The notes beneath the pieces were generated by a model. It searched no databases and was not told the origin of the DNA. It saw only the letters and a program-made list of their open reading frames with translations. Source: Fidelibacterota bacterium (GTDB lineage: Bacteria; Fidelibacterota; Marinisomatia; Marinisomatales; JABMOV01). Taken from it: a stretch of DNA of 25,577 nt. The translations under genes were made by a program, and so were the position numbers. The stretch lies in NCBI GenBank assembly GCA_046861395.1, contig JBHHUC010000029.1:1-25577 (forward strand), read 5' to 3'. Each line of letters begins with the position of its first letter. Position 1 is the stretch's first letter. This document shows, in pieces, positions 3,169 to 23,506 of the stretch.

Positions 3169-3179
3169 GAGTCTAACCC

Positions 3180-4451: not shown

Positions 4452-4491
4452 TACCAAACATAGATAAATTAATTGGGGGACTGAATACGCG

Positions 4492-4522: not shown

Positions 4523-4562
4523 AAATGCTTGAAATCCAATGGGATTTTAAGCATACAGGCCA

Positions 4563-7500
4563 ATGGAATTACAAAGGAGTACCTGGTTGCAGAATTTAAA
4601 ACATTGTCAGAATACCTATCCTAAGGGCAGCAGAATTATTGTTGCGCTTGCATTCATCTTTGCTTTCAGCCATGCCGCGGGAGGAGCAGACCCGACAAAG
4701 GTTCAATCCCATTTTCAATCCGCTGCAGGGATGCAACTTCAATTCGAATTAGGTGAATACAGTGTTGAAACGATTACTCATCAGGGCGTGACGTATCAAA
4801 GAATAAACGGTTCAATGTCCGGAACCGTCTCACGGGAAGGCGAACCGCAATTGCCGGTTTATACTACTTTCTACCAGGTAGATCCCCGGAAAACATATAC
4901 GATTTCCGCTGTCATTCGGAATAAAGAGACATTGTCGAATATTCACCTGATTCCGGTCCAATCCTGGGTAGATCCTGAGATTATGGATACGAAGCCATTG
5001 ATGAAGGATGTTTCACTCTATAATAGTCAGGAAGTATTTCCGGAAAATATCGTTACGGTTTCAGATGTAATGACTATGCGGGATGTCCATGTGATTCGCA
5101 TATCGTTGACACCATTTCGGTATATCCCTGGAACGGGAGAATTAGAAGTCATTACAGCGGCCACGATTGAGGTAACAGAGACAGGGAATAACCCCAATCC
5201 AGACTTTACACCGGGGAAAATAGCCAGGGAATTTGAACCGCTTTACCGATCATTAATTGCCAATTATGATGCTACCAGAAGTGAGCTGGTTGAATACCAG
5301 AAACCATCAATATTATACATTCTACCAGGTGACGGGTCCGGTGTCCTGGGCAATCTTGAACCATTGTTGAACTGGAGGAAACGTGCCGGATACGTTGTCA
5401 ATACTGTCACGACGAATGAAACGGGAGGTACTGCTTCCGCAATAAAATCCTATATTCTTAATGCCTATACAACCTGGGATAATCCGCCTGTATGGATTGC
5501 CCTTGTCGGGGACGCCAACGGGTCGTATTCAATTCCTACCTTCATTGAAAGCTGGAGTTGGTACAATGGTGAGGGCGATCATCCCTATACTGAATTGACC
5601 GGCAATGATATACTACCGGAAGTCCTGGTAGGACGCATTTCCATCAGCTCTACGACCGACTTGATCAATATTGTCAATAAAACGGTCCAGTATGAGACCA
5701 ATCCCTACATGGGGGAAAACTGGTTTACGCGAGCCGTCCTAGTGGGTGATCCCGGGTCTTCGGGAATATCCACTGTGATTACCAATCAATACATACAGCA
5801 GTTATTGTCCTATAACGGGTATGATGATTTACGTACGGTCTATTCCAGTCCATTTCCGTCGCAAATGGTATCCAATCTGGGAGATGGTGCCACGTTCTTT
5901 AATTACCGGGGGTATTACGGTGTGAGCGGATTTGATTGCGGTGATGTGGGCGCGGCCAACAACGGATTCAAACTGCCCATCGCCACCGTCATTACCTGCG
6001 GGACCGGTTCCTTTACTGGAACTTCCATATCGGAATGTTTCATTCGGGCCGGAACCGTGGCCAATCCGAAAGGAGCCGTGGCTGCGGTGGGAACGGCAAC
6101 CATCGGAACGCATACCATGTTCAATAATATTGTGGATATGGGATTCTACTACGGTATCTTCCAGAATGGCATGACGACGCCGTCCGGTGCATTGGCGCAG
6201 GGACAACTGGAATTGTTGCGCACCTATCCCTCCAATCCGAATAATTATGTCAGCATATTTACCCATTGGAATAATCTCATGGGTGACCCGGCCGTGAGAA
6301 TGTGGACGGCCGTGCCACAATATTTATCCGTCGGCTACCTTCCGGTCATTTCCAAGGGAACCAATTTCATCGATGTACACGTTCAGCTGACCAGTGGCAA
6401 TTCTGTTGCCGGGGCTTACGTAACCTTGTTCCAGGCTACGACCGGATATTCGGAATCGGCCTGGACCGATGAAAACGGCAACATTACAATACCGATAGAT
6501 ACGGATTTGAATGGTGAAATTCTATTAACGGTGATCAAAAATAATCATATTCCCTATCAGGGATCATTTCTCATTACCGAACCGGGTGTCAGTGTAAATG
6601 TATTACCGGCCATGGTCAATATCACTGATGACGGAAGCAATGGATCAGTCGGAAATGGTGACGGTATCATCAATCCCGGAGAAACAATTGCTCTGTCAGT
6701 GCCGGCGTTCAATTACGGCGCCAACGCTAGTGGTGATGTGTATACCAGGCTAATTACCAATTCACCCTATGTTAATTTGATCCAGGACAGCGTTCATATT
6801 GGTGTCGTTTCAGCCGGTACGTCGGTTGTGGGAAGTGACTATTTCCTGATCCAGGTCAATAATGGACTGGTTGACGGTACCGATCTTGGCTTACGGTATG
6901 ATTTTATCGATCCCGATAATGGCACATGGCAGGGAAATGTTGGCGGCCTGATAAGCGGTGCCAATATATCACCGCGTACGATTGCCGTGAATGATAACGG
7001 AGACGGAATCCTGCAACCGGGTGAAACATCGGAAATCCAGATAACATTGAAAAACGGGGGCAGCATCCTGGCCGGAAATGTCTATGCTACGATTACCTGT
7101 TCCAATCCCGACATTGAAATATTAGATAATTACGGATCCTGGGGCGATATGTATGCTGGGCAGATGTCCAATAACAGTGCAGACGAATTCACCATTTATG
7201 CTGCTGAAGGAATTATTCCCGGGACAATCGCCCATATTACAATGTCCATCAACGGTGACAATGGCGTTCATTTTTCCGGACTGATTGATCTAATGATTGG
7301 TGACCCCCAGGTGTCAGATCCGGTGGGACCCGATGAGCATGGATATTACATCTATGATAGTGGTGATTTGCTCTATGCTGTTGCTCCCTACTATAATTGG
7401 ATCGAAATCGATGATCGCTATGGCGGTGACGGTAACTATCTGAGTAATCTTGTGGACGGCGGTAACAATGGCGATGCTACGGTTACCGTACCACTTCCGT

Positions 7501-8210
7501 TTACATTTCGGATGTATGGCGAAGAATATTCCACAATTTCCATTTGTTCCAATGGCTGGATATCCATGGGCTCCACTGCCATGCGTTCATTCCGGAATTA
7601 TCGTGTACCCGGACCGGGGGGGCCGTCCCCCATCATTGCCGGTTTCTGGGATGATTTAACAACCACTGGGAATGGAAGAGTTTATACTAAATATGATAAC
7701 TCGGGTCACCGTTTCATCGTTCAATGGTCGCGGGTTCGTACCTATGATAAAAATGATACCGAAACTTTCCAGATCATTTTACGCGATCCCCAGTTCTATT
7801 TCACGCCCACCGGGGATGGTGAAATCGTTGTTCAGTACCATACCTACAACAATACATCCTCTGGGAACAGCAGTGCCCAGGCACACGGAAATTATGCCAC
7901 CATTGGCATTGAAGACCAGTCGGGCCAGATCGGTTTACAGTACACGTACCAGAATCAATATGCCAATGCGGCCATGCCGCTTTCGGGTGGGACATCCATT
8001 CTAATTACCACCAGGGGCAGCTCAATCCGCATGCGTGGCGACGTGACACAGGATAATATTGTGGATCTATATGACATCCTGACGCTGGTGGATTATATCC
8101 TGGCTGATGAAGTCGGATATTTGAATCCCTATCTGGCCGATATTAACGGTGACGGGAATGTCAATATTCTGGATGTGATTGGAATGGTTCAGTCCATCAT
8201 GAACTATTAA
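4563..8210 (+). CDS. C25 (gingipain-fold) peptidase-like protein: signal peptide, propeptide, C25 domain, Ig-like repeats, NIDO-like domain, C-terminal dockerin
   Basis: Propeptide_C25-like EGEPQLP and PFRYIP..GEL. C25 hallmarks WRKRAGY, IALVGD, DHPYTELTGNDILPEVLVGRIS, NYRGYYG, VITCGTG, KGAVAAVG, NLMGDP. Dockerin GDVTQDNIVDLYDI...ADINGDGNVNILDV at 8037-8207. Confidence 0.9.
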   Translation: MELQRSTWLQNLKHCQNTYPKGSRIIVALAFIFAFSHAAGGADPTKVQSHFQSAAGMQLQFELGEYSVETITHQGVTYQRINGSMSGTVSREGEPQLPVYTTFYQVDPRKTYTISAVIRNKETLSNIHLIPVQSWVDPEIMDTKPLMKDVSLYNSQEVFPENIVTVSDVMTMRDVHVIRISLTPFRYIPGTGELEVITAATIEVTETGNNPNPDFTPGKIAREFEPLYRSLIANYDATRSELVEYQKPSILYILPGDGSGVLGNLEPLLNWRKRAGYVVNTVTTNETGGTASAIKSYILNAYTTWDNPPVWIALVGDANGSYSIPTFIESWSWYNGEGDHPYTELTGNDILPEVLVGRISISSTTDLINIVNKTVQYETNPYMGENWFTRAVLVGDPGSSGISTVITNQYIQQLLSYNGYDDLRTVYSSPFPSQMVSNLGDGATFFNYRGYYGVSGFDCGDVGAANNGFKLPIATVITCGTGSFTGTSISECFIRAGTVANPKGAVAAVGTATIGTHTMFNNIVDMGFYYGIFQNGMTTPSGALAQGQLELLRTYPSNPNNYVSIFTHWNNLMGDPAVRMWTAVPQYLSVGYLPVISKGTNFIDVHVQLTSGNSVAGAYVTLFQATTGYSESAWTDENGNITIPIDTDLNGEILLTVIKNNHIPYQGSFLITEPGVSVNVLPAMVNITDDGSNGSVGNGDGIINPGETIALSVPAFNYGANASGDVYTRLITNSPYVNLIQDSVHIGVVSAGTSVVGSDYFLIQVNNGLVDGTDLGLRYDFIDPDNGTWQGNVGGLISGANISPRTIAVNDNGDGILQPGETSEIQITLKNGGSILAGNVYATITCSNPDIEILDNYGSWGDMYAGQMSNNSADEFTIYAAEGIIPGTIAHITMSINGDNGVHFSGLIDLMIGDPQVSDPVGPDEHGYYIYDSGDLLYAVAPYYNWIEIDDRYGGDGNYLSNLVDGGNNGDATVTVPLPFTFRMYGEEYSTISICSNGWISMGSTAMRSFRNYRVPGPGGPSPIIAGFWDDLTTTGNGRVYTKYDNSGHRFIVQWSRVRTYDKNDTETFQIILRDPQFYFTPTGDGEIVVQYHTYNNTSSGNSSAQAHGNYATIGIEDQSGQIGLQYTYQNQYANAAMPLSGGTSILITTRGSSIRMRGDVTQDNIVDLYDILTLVDYILADEVGYLNPYLADINGDGNVNILDVIGMVQSIMNY

Positions 8211-8246
8211 TTGCGGTAGGTGATATCGAAGTATCATTAATACATT

Positions 8247-9434
8247 ATGGATTTGCCGATATCACCACTCTTTCTGCTTACCGGAATATCATTAATACTG
8301 ATCATTGCCGGTCTAATTGAATTTCACACCCATCAACTGGTTCTGCAGAAAGTCCCGGTTCGAATCCACGTAAACGGTACCCGGGGCAAATCCAGTGTTA
8401 CCCGTTTGATTGCTGCCGGACTCCGGGCCGGAGGTATCAGGGTTTTCGCAAAGACGACGGGTACGGCTCCCCGTGTAATCGATGCCGCCGGAGTTGACCG
8501 TGTCATCCATCGCTTGCGCAAAGCATCGATTGGCGAACAGGTGCGACTCATGCGCTTCTTTGCCCGGGAAAAAGCGGAAGTGGTTGTCATCGAATGCATG
8601 GCGGTTCAGCCCCAGTATCAATGGATTTCGGAACATCAGATGATAAAAGCAAAAATAGGTGTGATAACCAATGTCCGTCCTGATCATTTGGATGAAATGG
8701 GACCGACGATGAAAGATATTACTCTTTCGCTGGGGAATACGATTCCAGTAAACGGCGCTGTCGTAACGGCCGATGAATCGGCTTATCCCGTTCTGGCCGA
8801 TATCGCTGCCAGCCGCCAATCATCCATTAAGCTTATTGATGAAAATGCGATTTCACGGGAAGATTTATTGCGTTTTTCATATATTGAACATCCTCAGAAT
8901 ATTGCCCTGGCTCTGGATGTTTGTGAAAAAATGGGCGTAGATCAGCGGACAGCCCTAGACGGCATGGTAACCGTACAACCTGATCTCGGAGCATTGATAG
9001 TCTGGAACCTGGATTTCTCCGGCAAATCGGTATTGTTCATCAATGGGATGGCGGCCAACGACCCCGTATCGACCTTGCAGATCTGGAATTTCATCATTGA
9101 TCGTTACCCAGTGGAGGGTGAAATATGTATTTTCCTCAATACCAGGGAAGATCGTAAAACCCGCACCCGGCAAATGTTACAATTGGTCATGGAAAACATC
9201 AAACCGAACCGGCTAGTGGTCCGCGGGAAAAATATCAAATCTATTCTTCAACATTTAAAACATTATTCACCGGAGACCGAAATGGCGGTTGTACCAATGG
9301 ATGCTCCGGTGGGCGAAACGATTGAACATTTGCAGAAATGCTCACGTGATTCTCTCATCTTTGCCATTGGAAACCAGGTGGGAAAAGGACAGGAAATTCT
9401 CATTGCCATGAAGGGATATCGAACTCATGGCTGA
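8247..9434 (+). CDS. pgsB: Poly-gamma-glutamate synthase PgsB/CapB (Mur-ligase-like ATP-dependent amide ligase)
   Basis: N-terminal TM helix, then RIHVNGTRGKSSVTRLIAAGL P-loop, AKTTGT, IECMAVQP, ITNVRPDHLDEMGPT, PDLGAL, NGMAANDPVST and NTREDR, all CapB/PgsB hallmarks. Confidence 0.95.
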   Translation: MDLPISPLFLLTGISLILIIAGLIEFHTHQLVLQKVPVRIHVNGTRGKSSVTRLIAAGLRAGGIRVFAKTTGTAPRVIDAAGVDRVIHRLRKASIGEQVRLMRFFAREKAEVVVIECMAVQPQYQWISEHQMIKAKIGVITNVRPDHLDEMGPTMKDITLSLGNTIPVNGAVVTADESAYPVLADIAASRQSSIKLIDENAISREDLLRFSYIEHPQNIALALDVCEKMGVDQRTALDGMVTVQPDLGALIVWNLDFSGKSVLFINGMAANDPVSTLQIWNFIIDRYPVEGEICIFLNTREDRKTRTRQMLQLVMENIKPNRLVVRGKNIKSILQHLKHYSPETEMAVVPMDAPVGETIEHLQKCSRDSLIFAIGNQVGKGQEILIAMKGYRTHG

Positions 9435-9876
9435 AATTACCGTAGGATTGGGAATCGCCTTAAGTTTGCTATTGTCGGAATTTCTCGGTGTGACGGCCGG
9501 TGGAATTATTGTTCCCGGCTACATCGCCCTATATTTGCACCAACCGGTTCAGGTTGTGGTGACCTTTCTGGTAGCATTGTTAGTCTTCGGAATTATCAAA
9601 GTCCTGAGTCATTATATGTTCATCTATGGGAAACGCCGGATTGTATTGGCGATCATTCTGGGATTCCTGTTTGGTTTCATAACGCGGAATTATCTTTTCA
9701 GTCCGGTCAGTACCATCTCATTTGCGGTCATCGGCAATATCATTCCCGGACTGATCGCCAACTGGATGGATCGCCAGGGCGTTCTGAAGACATTATCCGT
9801 TGTTATGATTACAGCCGTCCTGGTAAAATTGGTCGTAATTTTGTTGAGTGGGGGGCAATTATTTGAAACCCTCTAA
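9427..9876 (+). CDS. pgsC: Poly-gamma-glutamate biosynthesis membrane protein PgsC/CapC
   Basis: 149-aa hydrophobic protein with GVTAGGIIVPGYIAL, IYGKRR and IGNIIPGLIANWMDRQG motifs. Overlaps the pgsB stop. Confidence 0.95.
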   Translation: MAEITVGLGIALSLLLSEFLGVTAGGIIVPGYIALYLHQPVQVVVTFLVALLVFGIIKVLSHYMFIYGKRRIVLAIILGFLFGFITRNYLFSPVSTISFAVIGNIIPGLIANWMDRQGVLKTLSVVMITAVLVKLVVILLSGGQLFETL

Positions 9877-11011
9877 TCAACCGTTCATTCCTTCTATCCA
9901 GCGCACAGCGACCTTGGTGTGGTTGGCCCTGCTCAGTATGCTGTGCATTACCATCGCCCTGAATTCTAAAGTGGTTCATATTTCACCCACTTATGAAATA
10001 AAGATAAAAGCGGCGCAACGCATGCTCGACGCAATGACATTGCTGAAAGAGACGCGGATGGAAAGTAGTGTTTTCATAGATGTGGAAAACGACCCCAATG
10101 AAACGGGGTTGGTGGGGAATCAATTCAGTCTGATCACGACGGATGAAGGCGACCTGGATGCCAAACTTACCACCCTGGATCCCAATTTTGCCGCTGCCAT
10201 GGTGGAATTATTCACCCGTGCCGGATTTGAAGCGGGGGACACGTTAGCAATGATGGTCACGGGCTCCATGCCGGGGAGCAATATTGCCGTACTAATCGCA
10301 TGTGAAGTAATGTCGATTACGCCCATTGTTATTTCCTCTGTTGGAGCCTCCCAGTGGGGTGCCAATCAGCCTGATTTTAACTGGCTTGACATGGAGGAGA
10401 TTCTCTATGATAACGGTTTCATTCATCACCGATCCATTGCCGCTTCCATTGGCGGAAGAAATGACATGGGACGACTGTTAAGCCCCAAAGGACGACGACT
10501 GATAGAAGAATCGATTGAACATCATGGTTTATACCTGATAAAAAATACTTCATTGAAGGAAAATGTTCAGGAACGATTGACCTTGCTGGCTTCAATCCGG
10601 CCTTTGGACAGGTATGATGGGTTTATTAATATCGGCGGGGGTGTCGCCAGCCTGGGTACAACATTCAATCATAAGTTATTACCACCTGGCATCGTTACCC
10701 GTGCGGAAGTGGAGGCCATAACCCGTCCCGGGGGAATAGAAGGTGTTTTGAGCCATTTTGCCAAATCCGGTGTCCCCGTAATTCATGTATTGAATATTCA
10801 ACGATTGACGGAAATGTTGGGAATGCCGTATGCACCCATACCCTGGCCGGAAATCGGCGAAGGCGATTTATACTCGCAAAAACGCTATAATTTGGTCATT
10901 GGTTTTCTCAGCCTTTTAGTAGTCGGTGGTGCCGCCTTTATTATTGGGTATCGCAGTTTGCAGCAAATTAAACAAAGAATGGAAGAACATGAGCCGGACA
11001 GCGTCCTTTAA
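9863..11011 (+). CDS. pgsW: Poly-gamma-glutamate system protein (PgsW-like)
   Basis: N- and C-terminal TM helices. Motifs DPNETGLVG, ITTDEGDLDAKLTTLDPNFAA, GSMPGSNIA, ISSVGASQWGAN and FINIGGGVASLG, recognised from the family that accompanies pgsBC outside Bacillus. TTG at 9863 preferred over GTG at 9848. Confidence 0.85.
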   Translation: MKPSNQPFIPSIQRTATLVWLALLSMLCITIALNSKVVHISPTYEIKIKAAQRMLDAMTLLKETRMESSVFIDVENDPNETGLVGNQFSLITTDEGDLDAKLTTLDPNFAAAMVELFTRAGFEAGDTLAMMVTGSMPGSNIAVLIACEVMSITPIVISSVGASQWGANQPDFNWLDMEEILYDNGFIHHRSIAASIGGRNDMGRLLSPKGRRLIEESIEHHGLYLIKNTSLKENVQERLTLLASIRPLDRYDGFINIGGGVASLGTTFNHKLLPPGIVTRAEVEAITRPGGIEGVLSHFAKSGVPVIHVLNIQRLTEMLGMPYAPIPWPEIGEGDLYSQKRYNLVIGFLSLLVVGGAAFIIGYRSLQQIKQRMEEHEPDSVL

Positions 11012-11873
11012 AATTCTGCTAACAATCCTGGTCTCTCTGGGATTATCATCCGTTCTGTCGGCGAAACTATTGAAGCCGGTAAAAAATGGAGAAAAGAAAG
11101 AAATCCTTATCGTCAATTCCAAGCGTCGTCTTTATTATCCCGTGGAAGACGAAGGATTAACCTATCTGGTACAGGGACCGACGAGGATTGAATTTATTTC
11201 CCGTTATCCCTACCCCGGTAAAACCAAGAAGCGGCAAAGTTTCAAATATACCATTATCCTGGATAAGAGTGATTCGATCCATGTCAGTCATCGCTATAAA
11301 ATTCAATCATCGATAAAATCTGTCCAGCACCCCAATCATTCCTATACCTATTCCGGGAACTATTTTATCAATATTCCGGATGGGCAACATGAAATACGGG
11401 TGATTCCACCGCGCAGTAAACAAAAATATCCCGTATTGATTCGTGTGCTCAGTAAGGAATTCGATCCGCCCAGGAATAAATCGACGGTGTTGGTGCCGAT
11501 GGTATCCCAGTCCGCCAGGCATATTAATATAGAATCATCGGTGGTTTCATATTATTCCGGTACGAAAATGACACCGTTGCAGGTCGAGGTAAAAGGTAAT
11601 AAGACATTGCGAATCTATACTCGGCTGGCCTTCGAGGACTGGATGGGGCGGGAGGAATCCTACCGAATTCGTGTGCGCGAGGGAAAAAAGGTGATCGGGA
11701 CCTATTATTTCAGCTCTGAACGATCCAGCGATGCGATTATTGCGGAAGAACCGGAACGGGTACCGGGGAAATGGCGCAGTTGTGAAATCCATACACCGGA
11801 CAGAGGTGCTTCCTATACCATTGAAGTGGTCGAGAGTGACAGGGAAGTTTTGATGAGGTTTCTTGAATATTGA
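10989..11873 (+). CDS. Exported basic hypothetical protein with two similar beta-rich domains
   Basis: ATG at 10989 gives a clean signal peptide (MSRTASFKILLTILVSLGLSSVLSA). Lys/Arg-rich. Internal similarity YY..GLTYLVQGPTRIEFISR versus YY..PLQVEVKGNKTLRIYTR. Confidence 0.75.
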   Translation: MSRTASFKILLTILVSLGLSSVLSAKLLKPVKNGEKKEILIVNSKRRLYYPVEDEGLTYLVQGPTRIEFISRYPYPGKTKKRQSFKYTIILDKSDSIHVSHRYKIQSSIKSVQHPNHSYTYSGNYFINIPDGQHEIRVIPPRSKQKYPVLIRVLSKEFDPPRNKSTVLVPMVSQSARHINIESSVVSYYSGTKMTPLQVEVKGNKTLRIYTRLAFEDWMGREESYRIRVREGKKVIGTYYFSSERSSDAIIAEEPERVPGKWRSCEIHTPDRGASYTIEVVESDREVLMRFLEY

Positions 11874-13949: not shown

Positions 13950-13956
13950 CAGGATC

Positions 13957-16956
13957 ATGAAAAAATTCATTATTATTGTTTTCACCGTATTTTTAACAGC
14001 GCAAAGTCCATTGTGGGATGTACCGGCTGGAGCACCGATTCGACAAGGAATCCATGTCGAGTGGCAGCGGACCGTCGCACCGGGCGACAACGATGACGTT
14101 ATCGTTGTCTGGTCCGATACTCGGAACGGGTCGAGAAATATCTATGCCCAGAAAGTACTCCCGGATGGGAGTCAGTTATGGGGAGAATTCGGCTCACCCG
14201 TGACTAATTTACCTGGACGGCAGGAGGATCCCGTTGCCATTGAGGATGGTGCCGGAGGGGCTTTCATCGCCTGGGTGGATTACCGCTTTGACGTAGCAGG
14301 AGATATATTCGTACAACATATCAGTTCTTCCGGACAAGTTCTGATGAATCCGTCCGGTGTTCCTCTATGTCAGGTCGCAGGAACACAAATTACCATTGCC
14401 ATGTGTACTGACAGTCTGGGTGGTGTATTCGTCACTTGGCAGGATAACCGAAATGGTGTGGATCAGGATATTTATGGAACGCATATTTCCTTTGATAATA
14501 CGGTCCTGGCCGAAGGAACAGGACTGCCGCTGGCTACCATCAATGGTGACCAATATCGTAAGAGTCTGGAATATAGCGGAAATCATCAAGCACAGTTAAC
14601 GTGGACGGACGAAAGAGACGCGGTTAATCCTGAGATTTATGTTCAACGGTTTAACCCGGATATGTCCCTGATTTTCACTGAAAATGGAATAAATATATCC
14701 AACCACGAAGCCCTGGATGTGGGACCAAGGACCACATTCATGCGTGGTGACACCAGCCTCATAGCCTGGCAAAACGGTGATTTTCTTACGTCAAAAGTAT
14801 TGTATCAAATCATATCCAGCACCGGTCCCTTGTTTACCGCTCCCGGTGAAGTGACCAATGATCCCGCCATTGAACTGAGTCCCCGTATCAAGCGGGACGA
14901 CCTGGGTAATGTATTCATTGAATGGAAAGATTTACGCTTTGATCCGGTGAATGGTGATCATTTCGTGCAAAAAGTAACCCCACTGGGCACTCTGGCCTGG
15001 GATTCCACGGGTATCCTGCTCGATACGACGGATATGGTCAATCTGAATGTGCGGTTTGCTCCTGATAATTCCGGCGGGGCATATTTTTTCTGGGAACAGG
15101 GGACTTTTCCGCAAGTCGATATTCAATCGGTACATATTTTATCTGATGGAAGCAAAACATATGTTCCCGTAACAAATCAGCCGGGGTACCAATTTGCTCC
15201 CATTGCCGGTTCGTCGGGAGCGGGAGATGTCTTTATCATTTATGCCGACCAGGAAACGGGCAGCGTCTATTTGAAATGTCAGTTAATTTCGGGCGACCAA
15301 CTTCAGTTTTCCACCCCGGGACTTACTCTCCGGACGGGGCTGGATGGTGATGTAAAATATGTGCAACACGGTCTGACGTCCGATGGTGTGCAGCTATCAT
15401 GGGAAGACAGCCGCGACGGTAAAAAAATATGGGGGACTGCCATCGCAGTTGATGGAACCATTTCGGAATATAACGGTCACATTATGAGTTATGGTGATTC
15501 CCAATCTGTCCCGGCGGAAACGGAACCGGAGTTACTGGTGACCGACGGTAATATTTACACGTCCTATTTTTCCACGGTAACTGGAGTGAGTCAAATTCGT
15601 ATTAATAAATTGTCGATCGATATGTTAAACCTTTGGGATTCCACCGGGGTCATTGTATATGATGGAATTACTGACCAGCGGCGGTCGCGATTGATCGACA
15701 CTCCGAATGGTTTGGGGGTATTCTGGTCCGATATACGGAATAATATTGATTTTGATTTGTATTACCAGGTTTTGGATGCCGGTGGACTACCCTTATTGCC
15801 CGATGGCGGTGTTCTGATTGCTGATGCCCAATGGGTGGATGATTATGTTGTTGATGTTTTCCCCACGCCTGATAATCATATTTTAGTAATTGCCCAGGAA
15901 GACAGCTGGGGAAGCGGAAAGTATATTGCGAAGAAGATCGATTATAATGGTACACCCGCCGCCGACTGGCCTTCTTCCGGTATCATTCTGGCCGGACCAA
16001 TGGGTGATCCTGACAATTTGGTGGGGAAAATTATCGGCCCGTCGCAAGGCATATTTTTTGTCTGGACCGAGATCAATAATTTTTCCTCGGATGTGAAGGC
16101 CCAGGTACTACATTGGGACGGTACAACCGCCTGGTTCCAGGGCGGGACCTATTTAACGACTGCGGACAATGATCAATCGCATCTGGCCTTCGATTTTTCC
16201 CGCGACAGTTCGAAGGCCCTGGTTGTGTGGGAAGATTTTCAAAATGGATTGGATTTCAATATCAGCGGTCAGTTGGTCGACCTGGATAATGCCAGTTTAT
16301 TGGGCGATAATATTTTATTTACATCCGATACTAGTTTCCAGATTAATCCCACAGTCCAATCCATCAGCGAAGACCAGTTTGTGATTGTATGGGAAGATGC
16401 CCGGGGCATAAATAATCCCGATCCGGCCATCGCCATTGGCAATGATTTGTATGAAACATGGTTTTCGATGTCGGAACAATCTTTCGTATTGGATGGGGCA
16501 CCTCTTATCCAGGAATTCCACCGACAGGAAAATGCGGCATTTGCCCGCTTATCGGACACAGAATTGTTGTTGTACTGGGTTGATCTTCGTTCCAGCGGGA
16601 AAGAAGACTTTTCCAGTCTATACGGTAAACTCTACCTGAGCAGCGATTTCCTGACGGCTATTCCCAATCCTATTCCCGCCACCTATCCGACAGCAGTTGC
16701 CTTTCCCAACCCGTTCAATGGTAAAACCGTCATTTCCTTTTCGGTTCCTGAAGTGGCTCCCGTCTCCATTGCCATCGTAAATCTCATGGGACAGCAGATT
16801 TATGATGCCGTTATCGAACCTCAGTATCCCGGAAATTATCAATTTACCTGGTCGGGGAATGATATATTGCACCGTCCTGTAAGCAGTGGCGTTTATCTTT
16901 ATAAGATACAGGTAAATGATATAATATACAGCGGTAAATTGATGTACTTAAAGTAA
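13957..16956 (+). CDS. Secreted repeat (beta-propeller) protein with T9SS type A / FlgD-Ig C-terminal sorting domain
   Basis: Signal peptide and about 16 repeats of hhhWxDxR(N)G..DIYxQ. C-terminal FPNPFN...NLMGQQI...WSG...VSSGVYLYKI...KLMYLK from 16702. Confidence 0.85.
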   Translation: MKKFIIIVFTVFLTAQSPLWDVPAGAPIRQGIHVEWQRTVAPGDNDDVIVVWSDTRNGSRNIYAQKVLPDGSQLWGEFGSPVTNLPGRQEDPVAIEDGAGGAFIAWVDYRFDVAGDIFVQHISSSGQVLMNPSGVPLCQVAGTQITIAMCTDSLGGVFVTWQDNRNGVDQDIYGTHISFDNTVLAEGTGLPLATINGDQYRKSLEYSGNHQAQLTWTDERDAVNPEIYVQRFNPDMSLIFTENGINISNHEALDVGPRTTFMRGDTSLIAWQNGDFLTSKVLYQIISSTGPLFTAPGEVTNDPAIELSPRIKRDDLGNVFIEWKDLRFDPVNGDHFVQKVTPLGTLAWDSTGILLDTTDMVNLNVRFAPDNSGGAYFFWEQGTFPQVDIQSVHILSDGSKTYVPVTNQPGYQFAPIAGSSGAGDVFIIYADQETGSVYLKCQLISGDQLQFSTPGLTLRTGLDGDVKYVQHGLTSDGVQLSWEDSRDGKKIWGTAIAVDGTISEYNGHIMSYGDSQSVPAETEPELLVTDGNIYTSYFSTVTGVSQIRINKLSIDMLNLWDSTGVIVYDGITDQRRSRLIDTPNGLGVFWSDIRNNIDFDLYYQVLDAGGLPLLPDGGVLIADAQWVDDYVVDVFPTPDNHILVIAQEDSWGSGKYIAKKIDYNGTPAADWPSSGIILAGPMGDPDNLVGKIIGPSQGIFFVWTEINNFSSDVKAQVLHWDGTTAWFQGGTYLTTADNDQSHLAFDFSRDSSKALVVWEDFQNGLDFNISGQLVDLDNASLLGDNILFTSDTSFQINPTVQSISEDQFVIVWEDARGINNPDPAIAIGNDLYETWFSMSEQSFVLDGAPLIQEFHRQENAAFARLSDTELLLYWVDLRSSGKEDFSSLYGKLYLSSDFLTAIPNPIPATYPTAVAFPNPFNGKTVISFSVPEVAPVSIAIVNLMGQQIYDAVIEPQYPGNYQFTWSGNDILHRPVSSGVYLYKIQVNDIIYSGKLMYLK

Positions 16957-16959
16957 ACT

Positions 16960-19284
16960 ATGAAATGTATTCGGTTCTTGATCGTGTTGTCTCTGTGCTG
17001 GAGTCTGCAGGGACAGGCCCTGGATTCGCGCTTTCATTCGGTGGAAGAAATTGCTGCACTGTTTTCGGACTATGTTGCTGATTCGACCCTGAGTGGATTT
17101 TTTCGGGTTGACACGATCGGTTATTCTTCCCGGGAGCAACGTCCCATCCTAGCGGCCGTTATATCCAATAATGTAATGCAGAAAGAAGATGAGGCTCGAC
17201 TATTATTCGTTGGACAAGTACATGCCGAGGAAGTCCTTGGTGTGGAGATTACACTGGAATTAATCTCCGAATTGCTATTTCCTGATCCGGTGGATATACA
17301 GCATGCCATGATATTGCGCCAGAACCTGGAAATCTGGATTATACCCACACTGAATCCGGAAGGTTTGGCTGTTGTGCACGATGGTTTAGACGTCACCTAC
17401 CGCAAGAATAAAACTGATTTCAGTCCTGATGGTATGTTTCCTAATGGAATATTTGATTATGATCCCAGTATCGGGAATGACGTGGATGGAGTAGATATCA
17501 ATCGGAATTTTGATTTTAACTGGGCTTTTGGCGATACTTTTCTGGAACCGGATCCATCGGATTATGGCAGCCATTTCGATTATTTCCGTGGTCCTGCCCC
17601 TTTTTCCGAGGCAGAAACACAGGCGGTAAAAAGATTAGCCGAGGAACGGAGGTTTCTGGCGTCCATCGTTTTGCATAGTTCCCGCTCGGGGCGATTGAGT
17701 GAAAAGGTGTTCACCTCATGGGAATGGGAAAATACCAAATATTCACCAGACCATCTGGCCATGAAAACCATCGGTGATATGATAGCCACATTGATTTTAA
17801 AAGAAGACGGTTCCGATTCCTACCTGTCCAGCTGGAGTAAAAGTCGGAACGGAAAAGCCCACGACTGGTTTTATTCCCAGACAGGCTGTTTTCAGTATCT
17901 GATTGAATGTGGCACATCCAATATTCAACCGGACAGTGCCTTGATTGAGGATACCATTGACCGTGTGCTGCCGGCATTATATTATCTTATCGACCGCTCG
18001 CTGGGATACAATACCGATGCCGGACAGCTCAGTGGAATCATTTATGATGAAAGCACCGGAAGTCCCATCCCTGGTGTCGTAGTGAATATTGCCGAATTAA
18101 CGGGATCCGTTTTGAAAACAAGATCTACGGATGAATTTGGTCGCTTTCGCCGACTGGTTAATGCCGGAACCTACACGCTGCAGCTGAACCATCCGGCCTA
18201 TTTTCCCCGTGAAATCACTCTGACTGCCAATAACAGCATCGTTACTCAATTCAGTACAGGGCTGGTTCCACGACAGACCTATCAGCTTGATGTCAGTATC
18301 GTGACGGAATCGGATTGGCCTTCCGGTGAAATCCTGCGGCTAACTCTTACTTCGGAAATGGGTATAACCGATACCCTGTCTCTGGCAGGGAACACTCTGT
18401 CTTTCAGCCGAACCGAAGGGGAGTGGGAACTCACGCTGATAAGCGAAAACGGGATTGCGGTACAGAAGAAAGTCCTGCTGGATCAGGATAAGGCCGTCAA
18501 TCTTCTCTATCGTCATCCTGATATCAGTCATACCTTTTCCCTGAATGATGAAAGCGAATGGCAAACCGTTATTGGTGACTGGGTCTTCGAGCCGATGGAA
18601 ATACGTTCCCAGGCCGACGCCTATTATGCCAATAGCGATACACTCACCGCTACCCAAACTCTTGTATCTACACCGTTGTATGTCGGGTCTTATAATCGGA
18701 TAGTATGTACCATCGACCATCGTTATGAACTGGAATGGGATCGGGATTCCATCATGGTATCGATTTTCGATAATGCCGGACATTCTGTAACCGAATCATT
18801 CTCGGATCATCATTGGAATATGGCAACCCGGAATATTCTGACGTTCATAAATGAATTTATCTCCGATTCGGTTCGTCTGCTGCTGAAGTTCAAGAAAGAC
18901 CAATCGGTAAACTACCGCGGCTGGATCATTAACGGACTGAAGCTGGATGCTGTCAATGATAATTATCTGGGAACGGATAACAATTCCCATCATTCCATTA
19001 CCTATGCGCTGCCCACCCTGATCGGACCGTATCCAAATCCTTCAACGGGTAATATTAATCTGGAATTATCGAACTGGAGTGGAGAAACAACAATTACCGT
19101 GTTTAATCTGCTGGGACAGCAGGTTTACCGCGCTACATTGCCGAACCTGTCTCATAAAAGACAACACTGGTCACTGGATTTCAATAATTTATGGAACGTA
19201 AATCCGGCCTCCGGTGTGTATTTCCTGCATATTCAGAATTCTGAAAGGAAAATGATCAAGAAATGCGTCTTATTAAACCAATAA
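16960..19284 (+). CDS. M14 zinc carboxypeptidase with carboxypeptidase-regulatory-like domain and T9SS-type C-terminal domain
   Basis: DTIGYSSREQRPI, HAEE (HxxE Zn ligands), IIPTLNPEG, RKN, GVDINRNF, GPAPFSEAET, VLHS and IECG (catalytic Glu). Regulatory-like domain GIIYDESTGSPIPG..TDEFGRF. C-terminal YPNP...FNLLGQ...ASGVYF. Confidence 0.9.
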   Translation: MKCIRFLIVLSLCWSLQGQALDSRFHSVEEIAALFSDYVADSTLSGFFRVDTIGYSSREQRPILAAVISNNVMQKEDEARLLFVGQVHAEEVLGVEITLELISELLFPDPVDIQHAMILRQNLEIWIIPTLNPEGLAVVHDGLDVTYRKNKTDFSPDGMFPNGIFDYDPSIGNDVDGVDINRNFDFNWAFGDTFLEPDPSDYGSHFDYFRGPAPFSEAETQAVKRLAEERRFLASIVLHSSRSGRLSEKVFTSWEWENTKYSPDHLAMKTIGDMIATLILKEDGSDSYLSSWSKSRNGKAHDWFYSQTGCFQYLIECGTSNIQPDSALIEDTIDRVLPALYYLIDRSLGYNTDAGQLSGIIYDESTGSPIPGVVVNIAELTGSVLKTRSTDEFGRFRRLVNAGTYTLQLNHPAYFPREITLTANNSIVTQFSTGLVPRQTYQLDVSIVTESDWPSGEILRLTLTSEMGITDTLSLAGNTLSFSRTEGEWELTLISENGIAVQKKVLLDQDKAVNLLYRHPDISHTFSLNDESEWQTVIGDWVFEPMEIRSQADAYYANSDTLTATQTLVSTPLYVGSYNRIVCTIDHRYELEWDRDSIMVSIFDNAGHSVTESFSDHHWNMATRNILTFINEFISDSVRLLLKFKKDQSVNYRGWIINGLKLDAVNDNYLGTDNNSHHSITYALPTLIGPYPNPSTGNINLELSNWSGETTITVFNLLGQQVYRATLPNLSHKRQHWSLDFNNLWNVNPASGVYFLHIQNSERKMIKKCVLLNQ

Positions 19285-22200
19285 TATTTGGCTATCTGGG
19301 ATTCAGTCTCATGTTGGCTGCCGACCTAAAGTTCCGTGATTCGGAACGGAGCCAGGTTCAGGGACCTGTTCCGTTGGCATTTAAATCCTATCTCACCGTC
19401 GGACAAACAGAAGCCAGTAATTTGACCTTTGTCCGGGGAGAATACCTGATCATTACACCGGACGCACTTGAATCCTATCTAATCGATTTCATCCAGTTTA
19501 AAAAATCTCAGGGTTTTGATGTTGTAGTTGCCACGCTGTCACAGACCGGCACCAATCCCGATGATATAAAAGCATTTATATTATCTGAATTAGAGCAAAA
19601 TCCCTTACTGGAATACGTCCTGCTGATCGGCGATGTTGATGGTATCGGTGCCATGCCATCATTTTATTATGGTGATGCCAACGACGTGACGGATCAAAAA
19701 TACAGTCATCTGGTTGGCAATGATTATCTGCCTGATGTATTTGTGGGTCGGTTTTCAATTGATTCAATTCTGGAATTACTGGTCATCATCCAAAAAACTA
19801 TTAAATATCATCGTGATCCGTTGGCCGGAAATCCGAATTGGCTGGAAAATGCACTGGTGGTCGCTGGTAATTACTCCAATACAGTCCCCATCCCAGTCAC
19901 ACCGGTTTGGACCTCACACTGGGTTCGTGAAATTCTCTTGGACTATGGCTATACAACCGTGGATACGGTATTTTATCCGCCGTTGCAATATGGCGCACCG
20001 CAAATCCAGTCCGCCGTCAATAATGGTGTGGGGATCGTCAACTATCGTGGTTGGGGGGATGCCAATGGCTGGCATTACCCCGAATTTCATGTCAGTGATG
20101 TTTCGGCTTTGAACAACGGTTGGATGACACCGGTATTCACCAGTTTTGTCTGTAATGCCAATGATTTCGCCAATAATGTGGATCCCTGTCTGGGGGAAGC
20201 GTTGATTCGGTCCGGGTCTCCTTCATCACCCAAAGGAGGAGTAGCGGTAATCGGTCCCAGTGATTTACATACATCTACGAAATACAATAATATCATCAAT
20301 ACCTACATGTATGATGCTCTGCTGGATCATAATACGACTGAGCTTGCCCCGGCCATGCTGGCCGGTCAGCTGGGCTTATTCCGAGAATTTCCGGATCAGA
20401 ACGGGGCCGGGGAGGCACAGGAATTCTATTTACATGTTTACAATATCCTGGGGGATCCGTCCCTGGACATTCACTTGAGAACACCGGACACTTTTACCAT
20501 GACGGTTGATGACGCATCCTTAACCGATGGCTTCTTATCCTGTACCGTGCAAGATGGAGCCGGCAATCCGGTGGCGGACGCCGTCATTGCGGTTTTGGAA
20601 AATGATGAATTGATCGCCAAAGGGATAACGGACCGTAACGGGCAAGTGGCAATGAATCTTGCTATTCCGGCCACATCCAGTCTGGATATTTATGCCAATA
20701 AGAACGGATTTATCCAGGGACATATCACACGTTCCATTTCTGCCGGCAGTATGGTGATTGGTGGGTATGCCAATGCTGACGGACAATTGAATTTCCCCGT
20801 TCAGACTGGTGTGGAAACGGCGCTGTTCCCCGTATTGATCAATAATGGATCAACTACAATTCCCGCAGGCACGGGCACGGTAGCGGCCAGTCATGAAGGA
20901 ATTATTGTTACTGATAACAGTTTTGATTATCCAGCCATTCCGCCGGGAGAAAATCGTAGTGCCGCCACACCCGTCCAAATATATGTGCGTAACGGAGAAA
21001 CGACTTATCAAGCACTTCTGTCCCTTGCCGCCGGTGCTGTAACGGAAAAGACCCTGTCCCTGAAAATCGATCCGTTTAATGTTTTGGTTACACTGGGAAC
21101 ATCAGCAGCGCCAGATCCGAACTCCACGGTCCAACCCACACTTCATTTAAGCAACAAGAGCGGTCTCAATTATACGGGATTGACCGTGAAGCTGGAAACA
21201 TTATCAGATTTTACTACGATTAATCTTCCTGCGGCCTTGACGTCCGTTGCTGTAAACAGTTGGGATACAACGCTGGTTACCCTAAATGATTATACCCTAA
21301 CACTGGGTGATCTGTCTTGGGGCAGTACAATTACATTGCTGGTAACCCTGATGCAGGATACGGTGACGGTGTATAGCCAGAAACATCATATTCTGATTGA
21401 ACCGTCCGATACCAATCTCCCCACCAGTCCTTCCGGCTATGGCTATTGGGCTTACGATGATACAGATGTCGGCTATCCGGAACAGCCGGTATTTGACTGG
21501 ATCGAGCTGGATCCGGCTTACGGCGGGGAGGGCGGAACCGAATACCTGGTAGATGATGACGATCATATTAATATTTCCCTGCCATTTTCGTTTACCTATT
21601 TCGGCGATACCTATACCGAGGCTACTCTCAGCAGTAATGGCTGGATATCATTTGTTCCCTGTGAAATTGATTATTTCTGGAATTATACGATTCCCATGGC
21701 TCTGGGGCCTAAAGCCCAGGTTGCTGCTTTCTGGGATGATCTGGAAGTGGTAGGAACGGACCTGATCCGGATATATACACGGTTTGATGCATCAGAAAAT
21801 CGCTTTATTATTGAATGGTCCCGGGCCTTGAATAATTTTGATGAAATCACCATGGAAACCTTTGAAATCATTCTTTATGATCCGGCAGTATATCCAACCG
21901 TGTCTGGGGACGGCATCATTGAAATCCAATATCTGGATATTCTGGATGTGGACAGTCAAAAGAATTATGCTACGGTAGGAATTGAGGATGCTTACCAGAA
22001 TGACGGCATTCAATACGCGTTTAACAACACCTACGCCGCCGGTGCGGCACCCATTGCCAATAGCAGAGTCATTCGCTTTACCACCAATCCGCCGGATAAT
22101 TACCAGGCGCCGCTGACAATCAAATCCCCGACGCTTCCAACCGCTTTTCGCGTTGATCCGGTTTATCCCAACCCTTTTAATGCTACGGTTACCATTCCAT

Positions 22201-22418
22201 TTGTATCCCTGATAGCGGGCGAATTTCAATTCAAAATATTTGATTTGCTGGGGCGTGAAATCTATACGAAATCCGTCAGTCAGCTTCAGCCTGGGAATAG
22301 TCTGATCCGTTGGCACGGGACAACGACAGCCGGACAACCGGTTTCGTCGGGAACCTATTTTCTGGTAGTGTATTCCAGCCGGGAAAGAATTACACAAAAA
22401 CTAGTATTATTAAAATAA
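19263..22418 (+). CDS. Second C25 (gingipain-fold) peptidase-like protein with NIDO-like domain and T9SS-type C-terminal domain, no propeptide
   Basis: YLIITP, FKKSQGFDV, YVLLIGD, DQKYSHLVGNDYLPDVFVGRFS, NYRGWG, SFVCNANDF, KGGVAVIG, YNILGDP. C-terminal YPNPFN..FDLLGREI..VSSGTYF..KLVLLK. Confidence 0.9.
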   Translation: MRLIKPIIFGYLGFSLMLAADLKFRDSERSQVQGPVPLAFKSYLTVGQTEASNLTFVRGEYLIITPDALESYLIDFIQFKKSQGFDVVVATLSQTGTNPDDIKAFILSELEQNPLLEYVLLIGDVDGIGAMPSFYYGDANDVTDQKYSHLVGNDYLPDVFVGRFSIDSILELLVIIQKTIKYHRDPLAGNPNWLENALVVAGNYSNTVPIPVTPVWTSHWVREILLDYGYTTVDTVFYPPLQYGAPQIQSAVNNGVGIVNYRGWGDANGWHYPEFHVSDVSALNNGWMTPVFTSFVCNANDFANNVDPCLGEALIRSGSPSSPKGGVAVIGPSDLHTSTKYNNIINTYMYDALLDHNTTELAPAMLAGQLGLFREFPDQNGAGEAQEFYLHVYNILGDPSLDIHLRTPDTFTMTVDDASLTDGFLSCTVQDGAGNPVADAVIAVLENDELIAKGITDRNGQVAMNLAIPATSSLDIYANKNGFIQGHITRSISAGSMVIGGYANADGQLNFPVQTGVETALFPVLINNGSTTIPAGTGTVAASHEGIIVTDNSFDYPAIPPGENRSAATPVQIYVRNGETTYQALLSLAAGAVTEKTLSLKIDPFNVLVTLGTSAAPDPNSTVQPTLHLSNKSGLNYTGLTVKLETLSDFTTINLPAALTSVAVNSWDTTLVTLNDYTLTLGDLSWGSTITLLVTLMQDTVTVYSQKHHILIEPSDTNLPTSPSGYGYWAYDDTDVGYPEQPVFDWIELDPAYGGEGGTEYLVDDDDHINISLPFSFTYFGDTYTEATLSSNGWISFVPCEIDYFWNYTIPMALGPKAQVAAFWDDLEVVGTDLIRIYTRFDASENRFIIEWSRALNNFDEITMETFEIILYDPAVYPTVSGDGIIEIQYLDILDVDSQKNYATVGIEDAYQNDGIQYAFNNTYAAGAAPIANSRVIRFTTNPPDNYQAPLTIKSPTLPTAFRVDPVYPNPFNATVTIPFVSLIAGEFQFKIFDLLGREIYTKSVSQLQPGNSLIRWHGTTTAGQPVSSGTYFLVVYSSRERITQKLVLLK

Positions 22419-22431
22419 ATGGAGTGATAAA

Positions 22432-22662
22432 TTGATTAAAATATATACAACATCCTGGTGCCCATATTGTGTGGCCGCCAAACGTTTGCTCACTGAACGT
22501 GGTAAAGAATTTGAAGAGATTGATATTGAAGCACAAGGAATCAGCCGGGAAGACCTCGTTAAAATCACGGGGGGCCGGTCCGTTCCTCAAATTGTTATTG
22601 CCGGAAATCCAATTGGAGGCTATGATAATCTCACAGCGTTGGATGCCAAAGGGAAATTATAA
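22432..22662 (+). CDS. grxC: Dithiol glutaredoxin (Grx3/GrxC-like)
   Basis: WCPYC active site, SVPQI cis-Pro motif, IGGYDNL. TTG start with GGAG about 7 nt upstream. Confidence 0.9.
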   Translation: MIKIYTTSWCPYCVAAKRLLTERGKEFEEIDIEAQGISREDLVKITGGRSVPQIVIAGNPIGGYDNLTALDAKGKL

Positions 22663-23506
22663 TCACCTACTGGTTCTTTTAAGTTTACTCCTACTGTACA
22701 GCGGATGTACTTCCGGTCCGAAGCCGGTACCTGAAACCTTTACCACCCTTACCGCAATGGAAGCGCAGGTGGATACCTACTCCGGATGGATTGGCGTTCA
22801 TCGCCGTGAAGTCAAAGATTTGCAAACTATCATGGCTCCTTTTCTGGAGGAGCAGATGCGGCATGATTTTTCTTTCTACGAAAAACTCCAACCATCCTTC
22901 GAGGCAATTGTTTCCTCCTACGATTCCGTTGCCCGTCTTGGACAAGCCCAGTATCGTCTGGTCAAGCAACTGAAACGGCGGAAAAATCCCGATGTCTTGC
23001 GTCCGGTAAAAGGAAAGAAGATTACTTACTCCGACCTGTTCATGCAAAATGACCTTGCGATTCAGCGCTTCGAATATTTACTGGATTATCATAAGGGTAA
23101 ACTGATAAAGGCATTTCGTAAGGAAAATATGCGGATGGTTTTCCTCAGGGATCAGTATAGCAGCTGGCATGAAGAAATTACTTTGCTGCAGAATGAACGG
23201 AAGGCCTTATTGCCTTCGGAAAATATGTTGTTACACGATTTTAGCCGCAATATTACGGATCGTCAACAACCACGAAAGATTATGTTGAATCGTCTAAAAC
23301 GTATTAATGTAATCCAGGACAGACTGGACAATCTGGATACAGTCCTTGGTGAAATAGATCGTCTGGGCGTGTCTGAAATCAACAGTACGGTTTTTATCGC
23401 TCCCATCGGTACGCCGCCCCGGGAATATGAAAATCGCTATAAAAAAAGTGTAGTCCAGTATAAATCATTATTGGCCAAATTGGATAAATATTTACCGAAT
23501 CAGTGA
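22643..23506 (+). CDS. Alpha-helical (coiled-coil-like) lipoprotein of unknown function
   Basis: ATG at 22643 gives MPKGNYNHLLVLLSLLLLYSGC (lipobox), followed by long amphipathic helices. Overlaps the grxC stop. The longer 22469 start would overlap most of grxC. Confidence 0.7.
   Translation: MPKGNYNHLLVLLSLLLLYSGCTSGPKPVPETFTTLTAMEAQVDTYSGWIGVHRREVKDLQTIMAPFLEEQMRHDFSFYEKLQPSFEAIVSSYDSVARLGQAQYRLVKQLKRRKNPDVLRPVKGKKITYSDLFMQNDLAIQRFEYLLDYHKGKLIKAFRKENMRMVFLRDQYSSWHEEITLLQNERKALLPSENMLLHDFSRNITDRQQPRKIMLNRLKRINVIQDRLDNLDTVLGEIDRLGVSEINSTVFIAPIGTPPREYENRYKKSVVQYKSLLAKLDKYLPNQ

Follow-up and report, generated by a model that had tools for sequence, protein, structure and literature searches.

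The stretch examined here (the window, 25,577 nucleotides; GenBank assembly GCA_046861395.1, contig JBHHUC010000029.1) is one whole contig (G000:C59) of a metagenome-assembled genome (MAG) of a Fidelibacterota bacterium, 2.37 Mb in size and 94% complete. A look through listed sequencing runs gave four DNA runs from a single study that contain the stretch, three of which may be its source, and no RNA run. It carries a run of 11 plus-strand open reading frames (ORFs), g04 to g14, in which the genes pgsB, pgsC and pgsW of a poly-gamma-glutamate (PGA) synthase are embedded among genes for envelope and surface proteins. The gene content, its conservation in other genomes, the occurrence of natural gene fusions and the state of the catalytic residues, together with predicted folds, make this a real and strongly conserved cluster. 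With a probability of about two in three, it specifies a two-membrane PGA system of the Fibrobacteres-Chlorobi-Bacteroidetes (FCB) group of bacteria, covering synthesis, outer-membrane export and surface processing of the polymer, functions that we infer from the evidence given below.

PGA is a capsule and slime polymer of Bacillus. With the PgsBCA(E)/CapBCADE systems of that genus the present cluster shares equivalogs of PgsB and PgsC as well as the order of pgsB, pgsC and a third gene, but it is without a PgsA/CapA gene and without CapD or PgdS, it belongs to a cell with an outer membrane, and it comes with seven further conserved genes for envelope and surface proteins. The likeness is closer to the PgsB-PgsC-PgsW cassette as defined by the models TIGR04012, TIGR04011 and TIGR04332, all of which are matched by adjacent genes; compared with the cassettes of 80 loci from other phyla discussed below, the FCB-group locus has an added envelope module. 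In the accessible part of a survey of capsule loci (PMC5542703), capB/capC loci are reported in many diderm phyla, and the capsule-finding model consists of CapABCDE only. A literature search yielded no description of the present module or of the passage of PGA across an outer membrane.

Synthase genes and conservation of the cluster

The assignment of the synthase genes, which is based on profile matches, is solid. PgsB (g05) scores 418.4 bits against TIGR04012 (cut-off 222.7), PgsC (g06) scores 123.5 bits against TIGR04011 (cut-off 96.45) and matches PF14102 at 7.3e-32, and PgsW (g07), encoded directly after pgsB-pgsC, scores 305.3 bits against TIGR04332 (cut-off 100). The pgsB-pgsC-pgsW call of the original prediction is thus borne out by three models matched far over their cut-offs. 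The pgsB-pgsC and pgsC-pgsW junctions overlap (-8 and -29 bp), and PgsB occurs over the cut-off in single copy, with no second PgsB in the genome. In PgsW, hydrophobic N- and C-terminal segments flank a domain of about 300 amino acids, and the position of the gene is that of PgsA in Bacillus. No similarity was detected between PgsW and the PGA_cap domain present elsewhere in the genome (hhalign probability 0.1%), and profile searches with PgsW, g08 and g09 against sequences of the Protein Data Bank gave nothing meaningful. The nearest relatives of PgsW carry the labels Candidatus Marinimicrobia or Fidelibacterota, and an ESM Atlas search returned PgsW clusters in several phyla.

The CapA/PgsA-type family PF09587 (PGA_cap) has no match within the window. 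Its sole match in the genome lies on another contig (C64) and is a secreted protein of 1610 amino acids (L164:4107-8939) with two PKD domains, a carbohydrate-binding module (CBM) of type CBM_4_9 and a C-terminal dockerin, its gene being flanked by BipA/MarC and a thioredoxin-reductase-like gene. Of the 41 genomes of the order, 13 encode similar giant PGA_cap proteins, each of these genomes being PgsW-positive, and a PF09587 match is absent from 16 of the 29 PgsW-positive relatives in the order. An accessory enzymatic role of the 1610-residue protein in the PGA system is possible. A Pfam scan of the window matched neither CapD nor PgdS within the cluster, and the genome contains one ordinary gamma-glutamyltranspeptidase (GGT) of 575 amino acids, the gene of which is located on contig C17 and has genes for an aminotransferase and a TonB-dependent receptor as neighbours. 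No CapA-type gene was found in the genome, and a canonical capA/capD set elsewhere, which would have counted against the original prediction, did not come to light; the GGT, however, may be a CapD-like enzyme.

Conservation within the phylum was surveyed in 20 loci of the same order and 20 loci from other orders or classes, which were scanned with hidden Markov models (HMMs) made from orthologues. Related genomes are not independent, so the counts serve as a description of the pattern and not as a test of it. Of 41 same-order genomes, 29 have a match to TIGR04332. The block pgsB-pgsC-pgsW-g08 is intact in 39 of the 40 related loci, the exception being cut by a contig end, and g09 comes next in 39 of them at E <1e-10 and in the last at 1e-09. 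The gene g10 follows g09 in 38 loci, the other two ending at g09, whereas g11 is present in 35, a C25-like gene in 37 and the M14 carboxypeptidase gene (g12) in 27; seven of the 13 loci without M14 reach the end of the contig or of the fetched region before or inside g11. The downstream genes therefore accompany pgsBCW in 40 of 40 related loci as far as the contigs extend, in agreement with the original prediction. The 20 same-order loci, and loci from other orders of the class, retain the order C25, pgsB, pgsC, pgsW, g08, g09, g10, g11, M14, C25. The C25 gene has another place in other classes, behind g10 and no longer ahead of pgsB, and since the set is still together after this move, the linkage has outlasted rearrangement between classes.

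A fixed sample of 301 genomes of the phylum gave a similar picture: both PgsW and g08 were found in 116 genomes and neither in 174, 2 genomes had only g08 and 9 had only PgsW, which means that PgsW is present in 116 of 118 g08-positive genomes. Both g08-only genomes have a contig that stops right after g08. The nine PgsW-only genomes comprise three fragments, one in which PgsW leads straight to g09, and five with a divergent type of pgsBCW.

Natural fusions provide further evidence of association. A 50%-clustered library contained 1293 PgsW representatives at E <=1e-3, and several of the 150 that were listed have about twice the normal length. Four of these are fusions of PgsW with g08 (P0124, P0159, P0129 and P0134; hmmsearch E 1e-16 to 5e-31), a relation also found by hhalign (probability 99.1% over 248 columns). 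When a fused form of 659 amino acids was used as query, 65 of 120 listed relatives covered at least 97% of it, on contigs of up to 3.8 Mb, which indicates that the PgsW+g08 fusion is real and widespread. A fusion of PgsW with g09 (P0193, E 2e-24) and a triple fusion of PgsW, g08 and g09 (P0259) are each represented by one sequence on one contig; these could be read-throughs of gene calling, but they show adjacency at least.

The PgsW+g08 fusions also served as query for a set of metagenome loci, of which 80 with GC contents of 0.31 to 0.73 were kept. Among loci with room for the gene, g08 was present in 67 of 70, a count that is biased because the query included g08, and g09 was found in 46 of 52, g10 in 23 of 32 and a C25-like gene in 32 of 43. 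In the low-GC group PgsW is 99% identical to proteins named Ignavibacterium sp., and for the high-GC group the nearest relatives that carry a name are Krumholzibacteria. Recurrence of the C25-like gene with pgsBCW, g08, g09 and g10 implies a core that is common to at least three FCB-group lineages, to which the Marinimicrobia, judging from the gene content of these loci, add g11, the M14 gene and a second C25 gene.

Some loci of the phylum are organized differently. The divergent pgsB-pgsC-pgsW type is found in L166-L170, L172 and L173 (genomes G028, G070, G104, G137, G148, G234 and G125), where a sorting-domain protein of 400-950 amino acids comes next, without g08 or g09; two genomes hold both types. 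In L171 (G226), two tandem C25-like genes precede pgsB, and a PgsW frame of 464 amino acids is followed by the barrel gene, without a separate g08.

Export candidates and surface proteins

Structures of g08 and g09 were predicted with AlphaFold2 (AF2) from alignments of 19 to 21 orthologues and compared by Foldseek. The model of g08 has a mean predicted local distance difference test score (pLDDT) of 89.5 and consists of two all-beta domains, with tandem CBM51/CBM22 modules as best matches (E about 4e-07). Template-modelling (TM) scores were low, as is expected of a two-domain protein. An ESM Atlas search with g08 returned solely Fidelibacterota clusters named hypothetical protein and CBM-like folds. 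The protein was originally described as exported and basic, which agrees with its isoelectric point (pI) of 9.7; values above 8 are found in 40 of 41 orthologues (median 9.6). The putative beta-barrel g09 now has a confident model with 14 long strands (pLDDT 86.5, pTM 0.80), for which the best matches are the monomeric 14-strand porins CymA (E 1.1e-10) and OmpG (TM 0.68 by target); PgaA (4y25), the exporter of poly-N-acetylglucosamine (PNAG), is also among the structural matches. The pI of g09 exceeds 8 in 27 of 40 orthologues (median 9.0). The other secreted members of the cluster, g04, g10, g11, the M14 protein and g13, are all acidic, with no basic protein among their orthologues and median pI values between 4.1 and 4.5. 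For a polyanionic cargo, both a periplasmic binder and a pore of basic charge would be fitting, and g08 is thus a candidate periplasmic binder or carrier of the polyanion, whereas g09 is a candidate exit pore for the polymer. As an export pair g08 and g09 are well supported by linkage, fusion, fold and charge. A predicted complex of g09 with g08, based on alignments of our own, had a median score of 0.08 against a mark of 0.32 and is evidence for neither side. The third protein, g10, was proposed to be a propeller lipoprotein, and this description can be kept: almost all of the 39 orthologues can be seen to have a signal peptide and then a Cys, and a single LVIVD repeat (PF08309) is matched barely over the cut-off (21.1 bits against 20.2).

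In the secretion of alginate (AlgE/AlgK), PNAG (PgaA) and cellulose (BcsC), one operon encodes a synthase of the inner membrane, its partner in the periplasm and a dedicated barrel for the outer membrane. The predicted barrel g09 is likewise encoded with the synthase, and the layout would work alike. The differences are considerable, since the polymer would be a polyamide in this case, the barrel has 14 strands with CymA and OmpG as best matches, and the periplasmic partner would be the tandem jelly-roll protein g08; no sequence relationship exists for g08 or g09. A Pfam scan found no tetratricopeptide-repeat family in any of the cluster proteins.

The two C25 paralogues that had been noticed at the borders of the cluster are g04 and g13, which match PF01364 at 1.4e-47 and 4.4e-61. 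Their sequence identity amounts to 30% in the C25 domain and 37% in a common C-terminal domain. Besides C25, g04 carries a gingipain-type Propeptide_C25 (3.3e-21) and Dockerin_1 (2.2e-06), and g13 has a C-terminal domain of family PF18962 (1.2e-07). With RgpB, Kgp and PorU of MEROPS family C25 they share the fold and the Cys, g04 also the gingipain propeptide and g13 the sorting domain of the type IX secretion system (T9SS), but a conserved YRG[WY] motif has Trp or Tyr in place of the catalytic His. When aligned to RgpB (1cvr; E 1e-17 to 6e-31), both proteins keep the catalytic Cys. At the position of the catalytic His, g13 has an invariant Trp (NYRGWGDANGWHYPEFH) in a motif that is unchanged in 11 of 11 orthologues, with two conserved His a few residues beyond it, and g04 has Tyr in a column that is Y, W or F in 12 of 12 orthologues. 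Thus, of the His-Cys dyad of an active C25 peptidase such as gingipain or PorU, both have only the Cys. Among pgs-linked C25 proteins of metagenome loci, 41 could be aligned in the His column, which contained W in 22, Y in 12, Q in 2, E in 2, V in 1 and H in 2, and the Cys was retained in 42 of the pgs-linked C25 ORFs examined. The genome's own PorU retains His (GHG) at the aligned position, and the two cluster proteins stay far below the cut-off of the PorU model, with 53 and 22 bits against 420. As judged from these alignments, the linked C25 proteins are a distinct His-less branch with the YRG[WY] motif, the members of which may bind and not cut, or may use another base.

The original prediction of three sorting-domain proteins is correct in that TIGR04183 is matched over its cut-off in g11, g12 and g13, the third being the second C25 paralogue. 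The genome encodes a true PorU (618 bits against 420) and at least 30 sorting-domain proteins, which makes g11, g12 and g13 credible T9SS cargo. The identity of g12, which was not named earlier, is that of an M14 zinc carboxypeptidase (PF00246 at 3.2e-31, PF18962 at 6.6e-12) with 774 amino acids in several domains. Comparison with carboxypeptidase T aligned the HxxE and His zinc ligands, the Arg and Asn-Arg (NRN) substrate binders and the catalytic Glu, and these catalytic residues are invariant in 13 of 13 orthologues. According to the accessible part of PMC4497714, PghP, a PGA hydrolase of phage origin, is a zinc metallopeptidase with kinship to carboxypeptidase A, and enzymes of this kind can cut gamma-glutamyl bonds. 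The intact M14 set and the kinship of PghP to carboxypeptidase A make a trimming role plausible, and by this analogy g12 is a plausible candidate for a polyglutamate-trimming enzyme, although it differs from PghP in being a multidomain T9SS cargo and shows no direct sequence match to it. The acidic protein g11 scores 29.1 bits against TIGR04183 (cut-off 23). Its repeat body matched no known family, and its ten W-x-D/E-x-R/Q motifs, with spacings of 54 to 168 amino acids that are mostly near multiples of 54, suggest about sixteen blade-like repeats.

Surface attachment may involve more than sorting domains. A protein of 1135 amino acids encoded on contig C136 (L176, L177, L179) combines three cohesin matches with a T9SS sorting domain, and the genome contains five to seven dockerin-bearing proteins (L180-L186), including g04 and the PGA_cap protein, so a cohesin-dockerin assembly may exist on the surface of this Marinimicrobia organism. 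In some other orders (L142, L150, L152 and L155) the orthologue of M14 or g11 has a dockerin-like end, which matches the dockerin end of the g04 model, and the sorting-domain part of its own model is lacking. As the dockerin end there replaces the sorting domain, the two anchoring modules appear interchangeable.

Possible functions of the cluster

In the mechanism that we favour, PgsB and PgsC, with their strong family membership, would polymerise glutamate at the inner membrane, and PgsW would fill the place that PgsA has in Bacillus. The polyanion could then be taken up by g08 in the periplasm and passed through the outer membrane by g09, with the lipoprotein g10 helping. At the surface, T9SS-delivered or dockerin-held proteins would act on the polymer or organize it: the M14 carboxypeptidase g12 may trim it, and the pair of His-less C25-fold proteins, like the repeat protein g11, may bind, shape or tether it. 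The part of g10 in export and the roles of g11, the M14 protein and the His-less C25 proteins are those that we infer. The idea of transit, trimming and anchoring was already put forward in the original prediction; the linkage and the fusions of PgsW with g08 and g09 speak for it, and the absence of the catalytic His makes trimming or covalent anchoring by the C25 proteins a less straightforward idea.

Several observations weigh against such a two-membrane PGA system. In a second set of loci, collected with distant PgsW proteins as query, 80 species-genome loci were kept, originating from Leptospira, Myxococcota/Polyangia, Planctomycetota, Verrucomicrobiota, Lentisphaerae, Nitrospirales and others. 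The genes pgsB, pgsC and pgsW are adjacent in 78 of them, the other two being cut by contig ends, but g08, g09, g10, g11, M14 and C25 were found within 10 kb of PgsW in 0 of these 80 loci of other phyla. This was unchanged with filters off and E <0.5, while the same HMMs did detect distant fusions. PGA loci thus exist in diderms without the module, which is not the general diderm solution. The M14 gene and the body of g11 are confined to six Marinimicrobia-like loci of the metagenome set (GC 0.38 to 0.48). Even in the phylum, L038, L044 and L050-L052 of the same order, and L158, have no M14 gene or g11 after the core, although there is room for the M14 gene, and in five genomes the divergent pgsBCW is followed by a sorting-domain protein only. 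The folds of g08 and g09 are generic, as the barrel matches general porins as well as PgaA. Loss of the catalytic His weakens a simple protease or transpeptidase reading of the C25 proteins, and the GGT on contig C17 is a possible CapD-like enzyme or helper.

Other functions of the surface proteins can be envisaged. It is possible, though unlikely, that FCB-group bacteria make a polyglutamate-containing surface layer, for which g08, g09 and g10 couple PgsBCW to the outer membrane and the His-less, Cys-retaining C25-fold proteins, as polyglutamate-specific transpeptidases or lectins, tether the polymer to T9SS-anchored or cohesin-docked proteins; if true, CapD-like anchoring would have been reinvented on the caspase/gingipain fold. 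We regard it as distinctly unlikely that the polymer, instead of being a free capsule or slime, is a surface anchor or coat component which His-less C25 proteins, acting as non-canonical clan CD transpeptidases or ligases, join to T9SS cargo, lipopolysaccharide or the wall, thereby doing the job of CapD with a different fold. Members of clan CD such as PorU, legumain and glycosylphosphatidylinositol (GPI) transamidase do act as transpeptidases. Moreover, a C25-like gene is linked to pgsBCW in most loci of the phylum (37/40) and of other lineages (32/43), the Cys is kept in 42 of the pgs-linked C25 ORFs examined, the lost-His motif of g13 is invariant with two conserved His shortly after it, the C25 proteins bear surface-targeting modules in the form of a sorting domain or dockerin, and the genome has a cohesin-bearing sorting-domain protein. 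Nevertheless, the canonical His is replaced in 39 of the 41 alignable C25 proteins, whereas the real PorU of the genome keeps it.

A further question is whether the polymer is PGA at all. That the PgsBC-type ligase makes another product, such as a short or mixed amide-linked compound or an envelope modification, served by the neighbouring genes, is very unlikely: PgsW is unrelated to PgsA by profile comparison and the literature yields nothing relevant on the PgsW-type cassette of this phylum, but the scores of PgsB and PgsC against equivalog models are about double the cut-offs, g08 and g09 have a basic charge that suits a polyanion, and an M14 enzyme fits a glutamyl substrate. Highly improbable, finally, is the notion that the peptidase-fold and repeat proteins are ordinary degrading or adhesive extracellular proteins of a protein scavenger and have no function in common with the PGA genes. 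Marinimicrobia MAGs encode many extracellular peptidases, including C25, according to the accessible part of PMC8359207, and several lineages have the cluster without M14 and g11. Against this, the linkage survives rearrangement between classes and recurs in two other phylum-level lineages, and the linked C25 proteins are of the His-less type, unlike a working gingipain.

As a two-membrane PGA system, the cluster supplies named candidates for each missing step of PGA export across two membranes, and these candidates are present in 116 of the 301 genomes sampled from a phylum that is abundant in the ocean, as well as in Ignavibacteria- and Krumholzibacteria-like lineages. If this is true, a polyanionic surface polymer would be added to the biology of marine particle-associated bacteria, which would matter for the binding of metals, for hydration and for defence against grazers and phages. 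Biotechnology would also be offered a PGA secretion route in Gram-negative hosts, and the gingipain family would gain a new, probably non-proteolytic branch.

The gene run and its surroundings

The features of the run are collected in Table 1. It was at first counted as 12 genes, but there are 11, the third sorting-domain protein being identical with the second C25 paralogue. The tight junctions that were claimed do hold from g04 to g13, where they range from -29 to +36 bp, but not between g13 and g14, where the gap is 50 bp when counted from a GTG start and about 200 bp from the Met ahead of the lipoprotein signal.

Table 1 Genes of the PGA cluster and their positions in the window
Gene	Product or description	Position	Strand	Basis
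g04	C25-fold protein with propeptide and dockerin	4563..8210	+	Pfam C25, Propeptide_C25, Dockerin_1
g05	PgsB, ATP-dependent poly-gamma-glutamate ligase subunit	8247..9434	+	TIGR04012
g06	PgsC, synthase membrane subunit	9427..9876	+	TIGR04011, PF14102
g07	PgsW, 'poly-gamma-glutamate system protein'	9848..11011	+	TIGR04332
g08	Exported basic protein, two predicted beta-jelly-roll (CBM-like) domains	10989..11873	+	AF2, Foldseek; without Pfam/NCBIfam family
g09	Predicted 14-strand outer-membrane beta-barrel	11870..12910	+	AF2, Foldseek; without Pfam/NCBIfam family
g10	Acidic lipoprotein with LVIVD-repeat match, probably a beta-propeller	12897..13949	+	PF08309, signal peptide and Cys
g11	Acidic repeat protein of 999 amino acids, T9SS C-terminal sorting domain	13957..16956	+	TIGR04183
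g12	M14 zinc carboxypeptidase with CarboxypepD_reg and T9SS sorting domain	16960..19284	+	PF00246, PF18962
g13	Second C25-fold protein, T9SS sorting domain	19263..22418	+	PF01364, PF18962
g14	Basic predicted lipoprotein, without family	22469..23506, probable start near 22622	+	LLYSGC lipobox

The last gene is peripheral and weakly linked, since g14 was found beyond the cluster in only 8 of 40 related Marinimicrobia loci. Its former description as a glutaredoxin is unsupported and was rejected, because the protein has no Pfam or NCBIfam match and no CxxC motif; after an internal Met it has a lipobox.

A gap of 144 bp precedes g04. The promoter that was thought to lie ahead of the run could not be recovered, as a sigma-70 scan gave no promoter-like plus-strand site in this region (4419-4562); counts of the promoter/terminator scan were near chance, with a total of 57 against 40.8 +/- 7.2. 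The gap contains a perfect 7+1+7 palindrome of 15 bp, GTTTGTTGAACAAAC, at 4492-4506. Its interpretation as a conserved operator was dropped, the 13-nucleotide core being present in 0 of 186 fetched loci.

Upstream of the gap there is a partial immunoglobulin (Ig)-domain gene and then PilB/PilC-type genes. The region directly 5' of the run (1444-4418) encodes a PilB/GspE-type ATPase, which bears an MshE-type cyclic-di-GMP-binding N-terminal motif (68.8 bits against a cut-off of 38), and a PilC/GspF-type platform protein. A PilC gene is also found 5' of the C25 gene in several relatives (L034, L035, L037, L040, L042 and L048). On the other side, a putative HExxH metalloprotease of the MXAN_6640 family with a T9SS sorting domain is encoded on the minus strand (23500-25374), convergent to g14, and a relative of this protein occupies the same place in L035, L040, L046 and L048.

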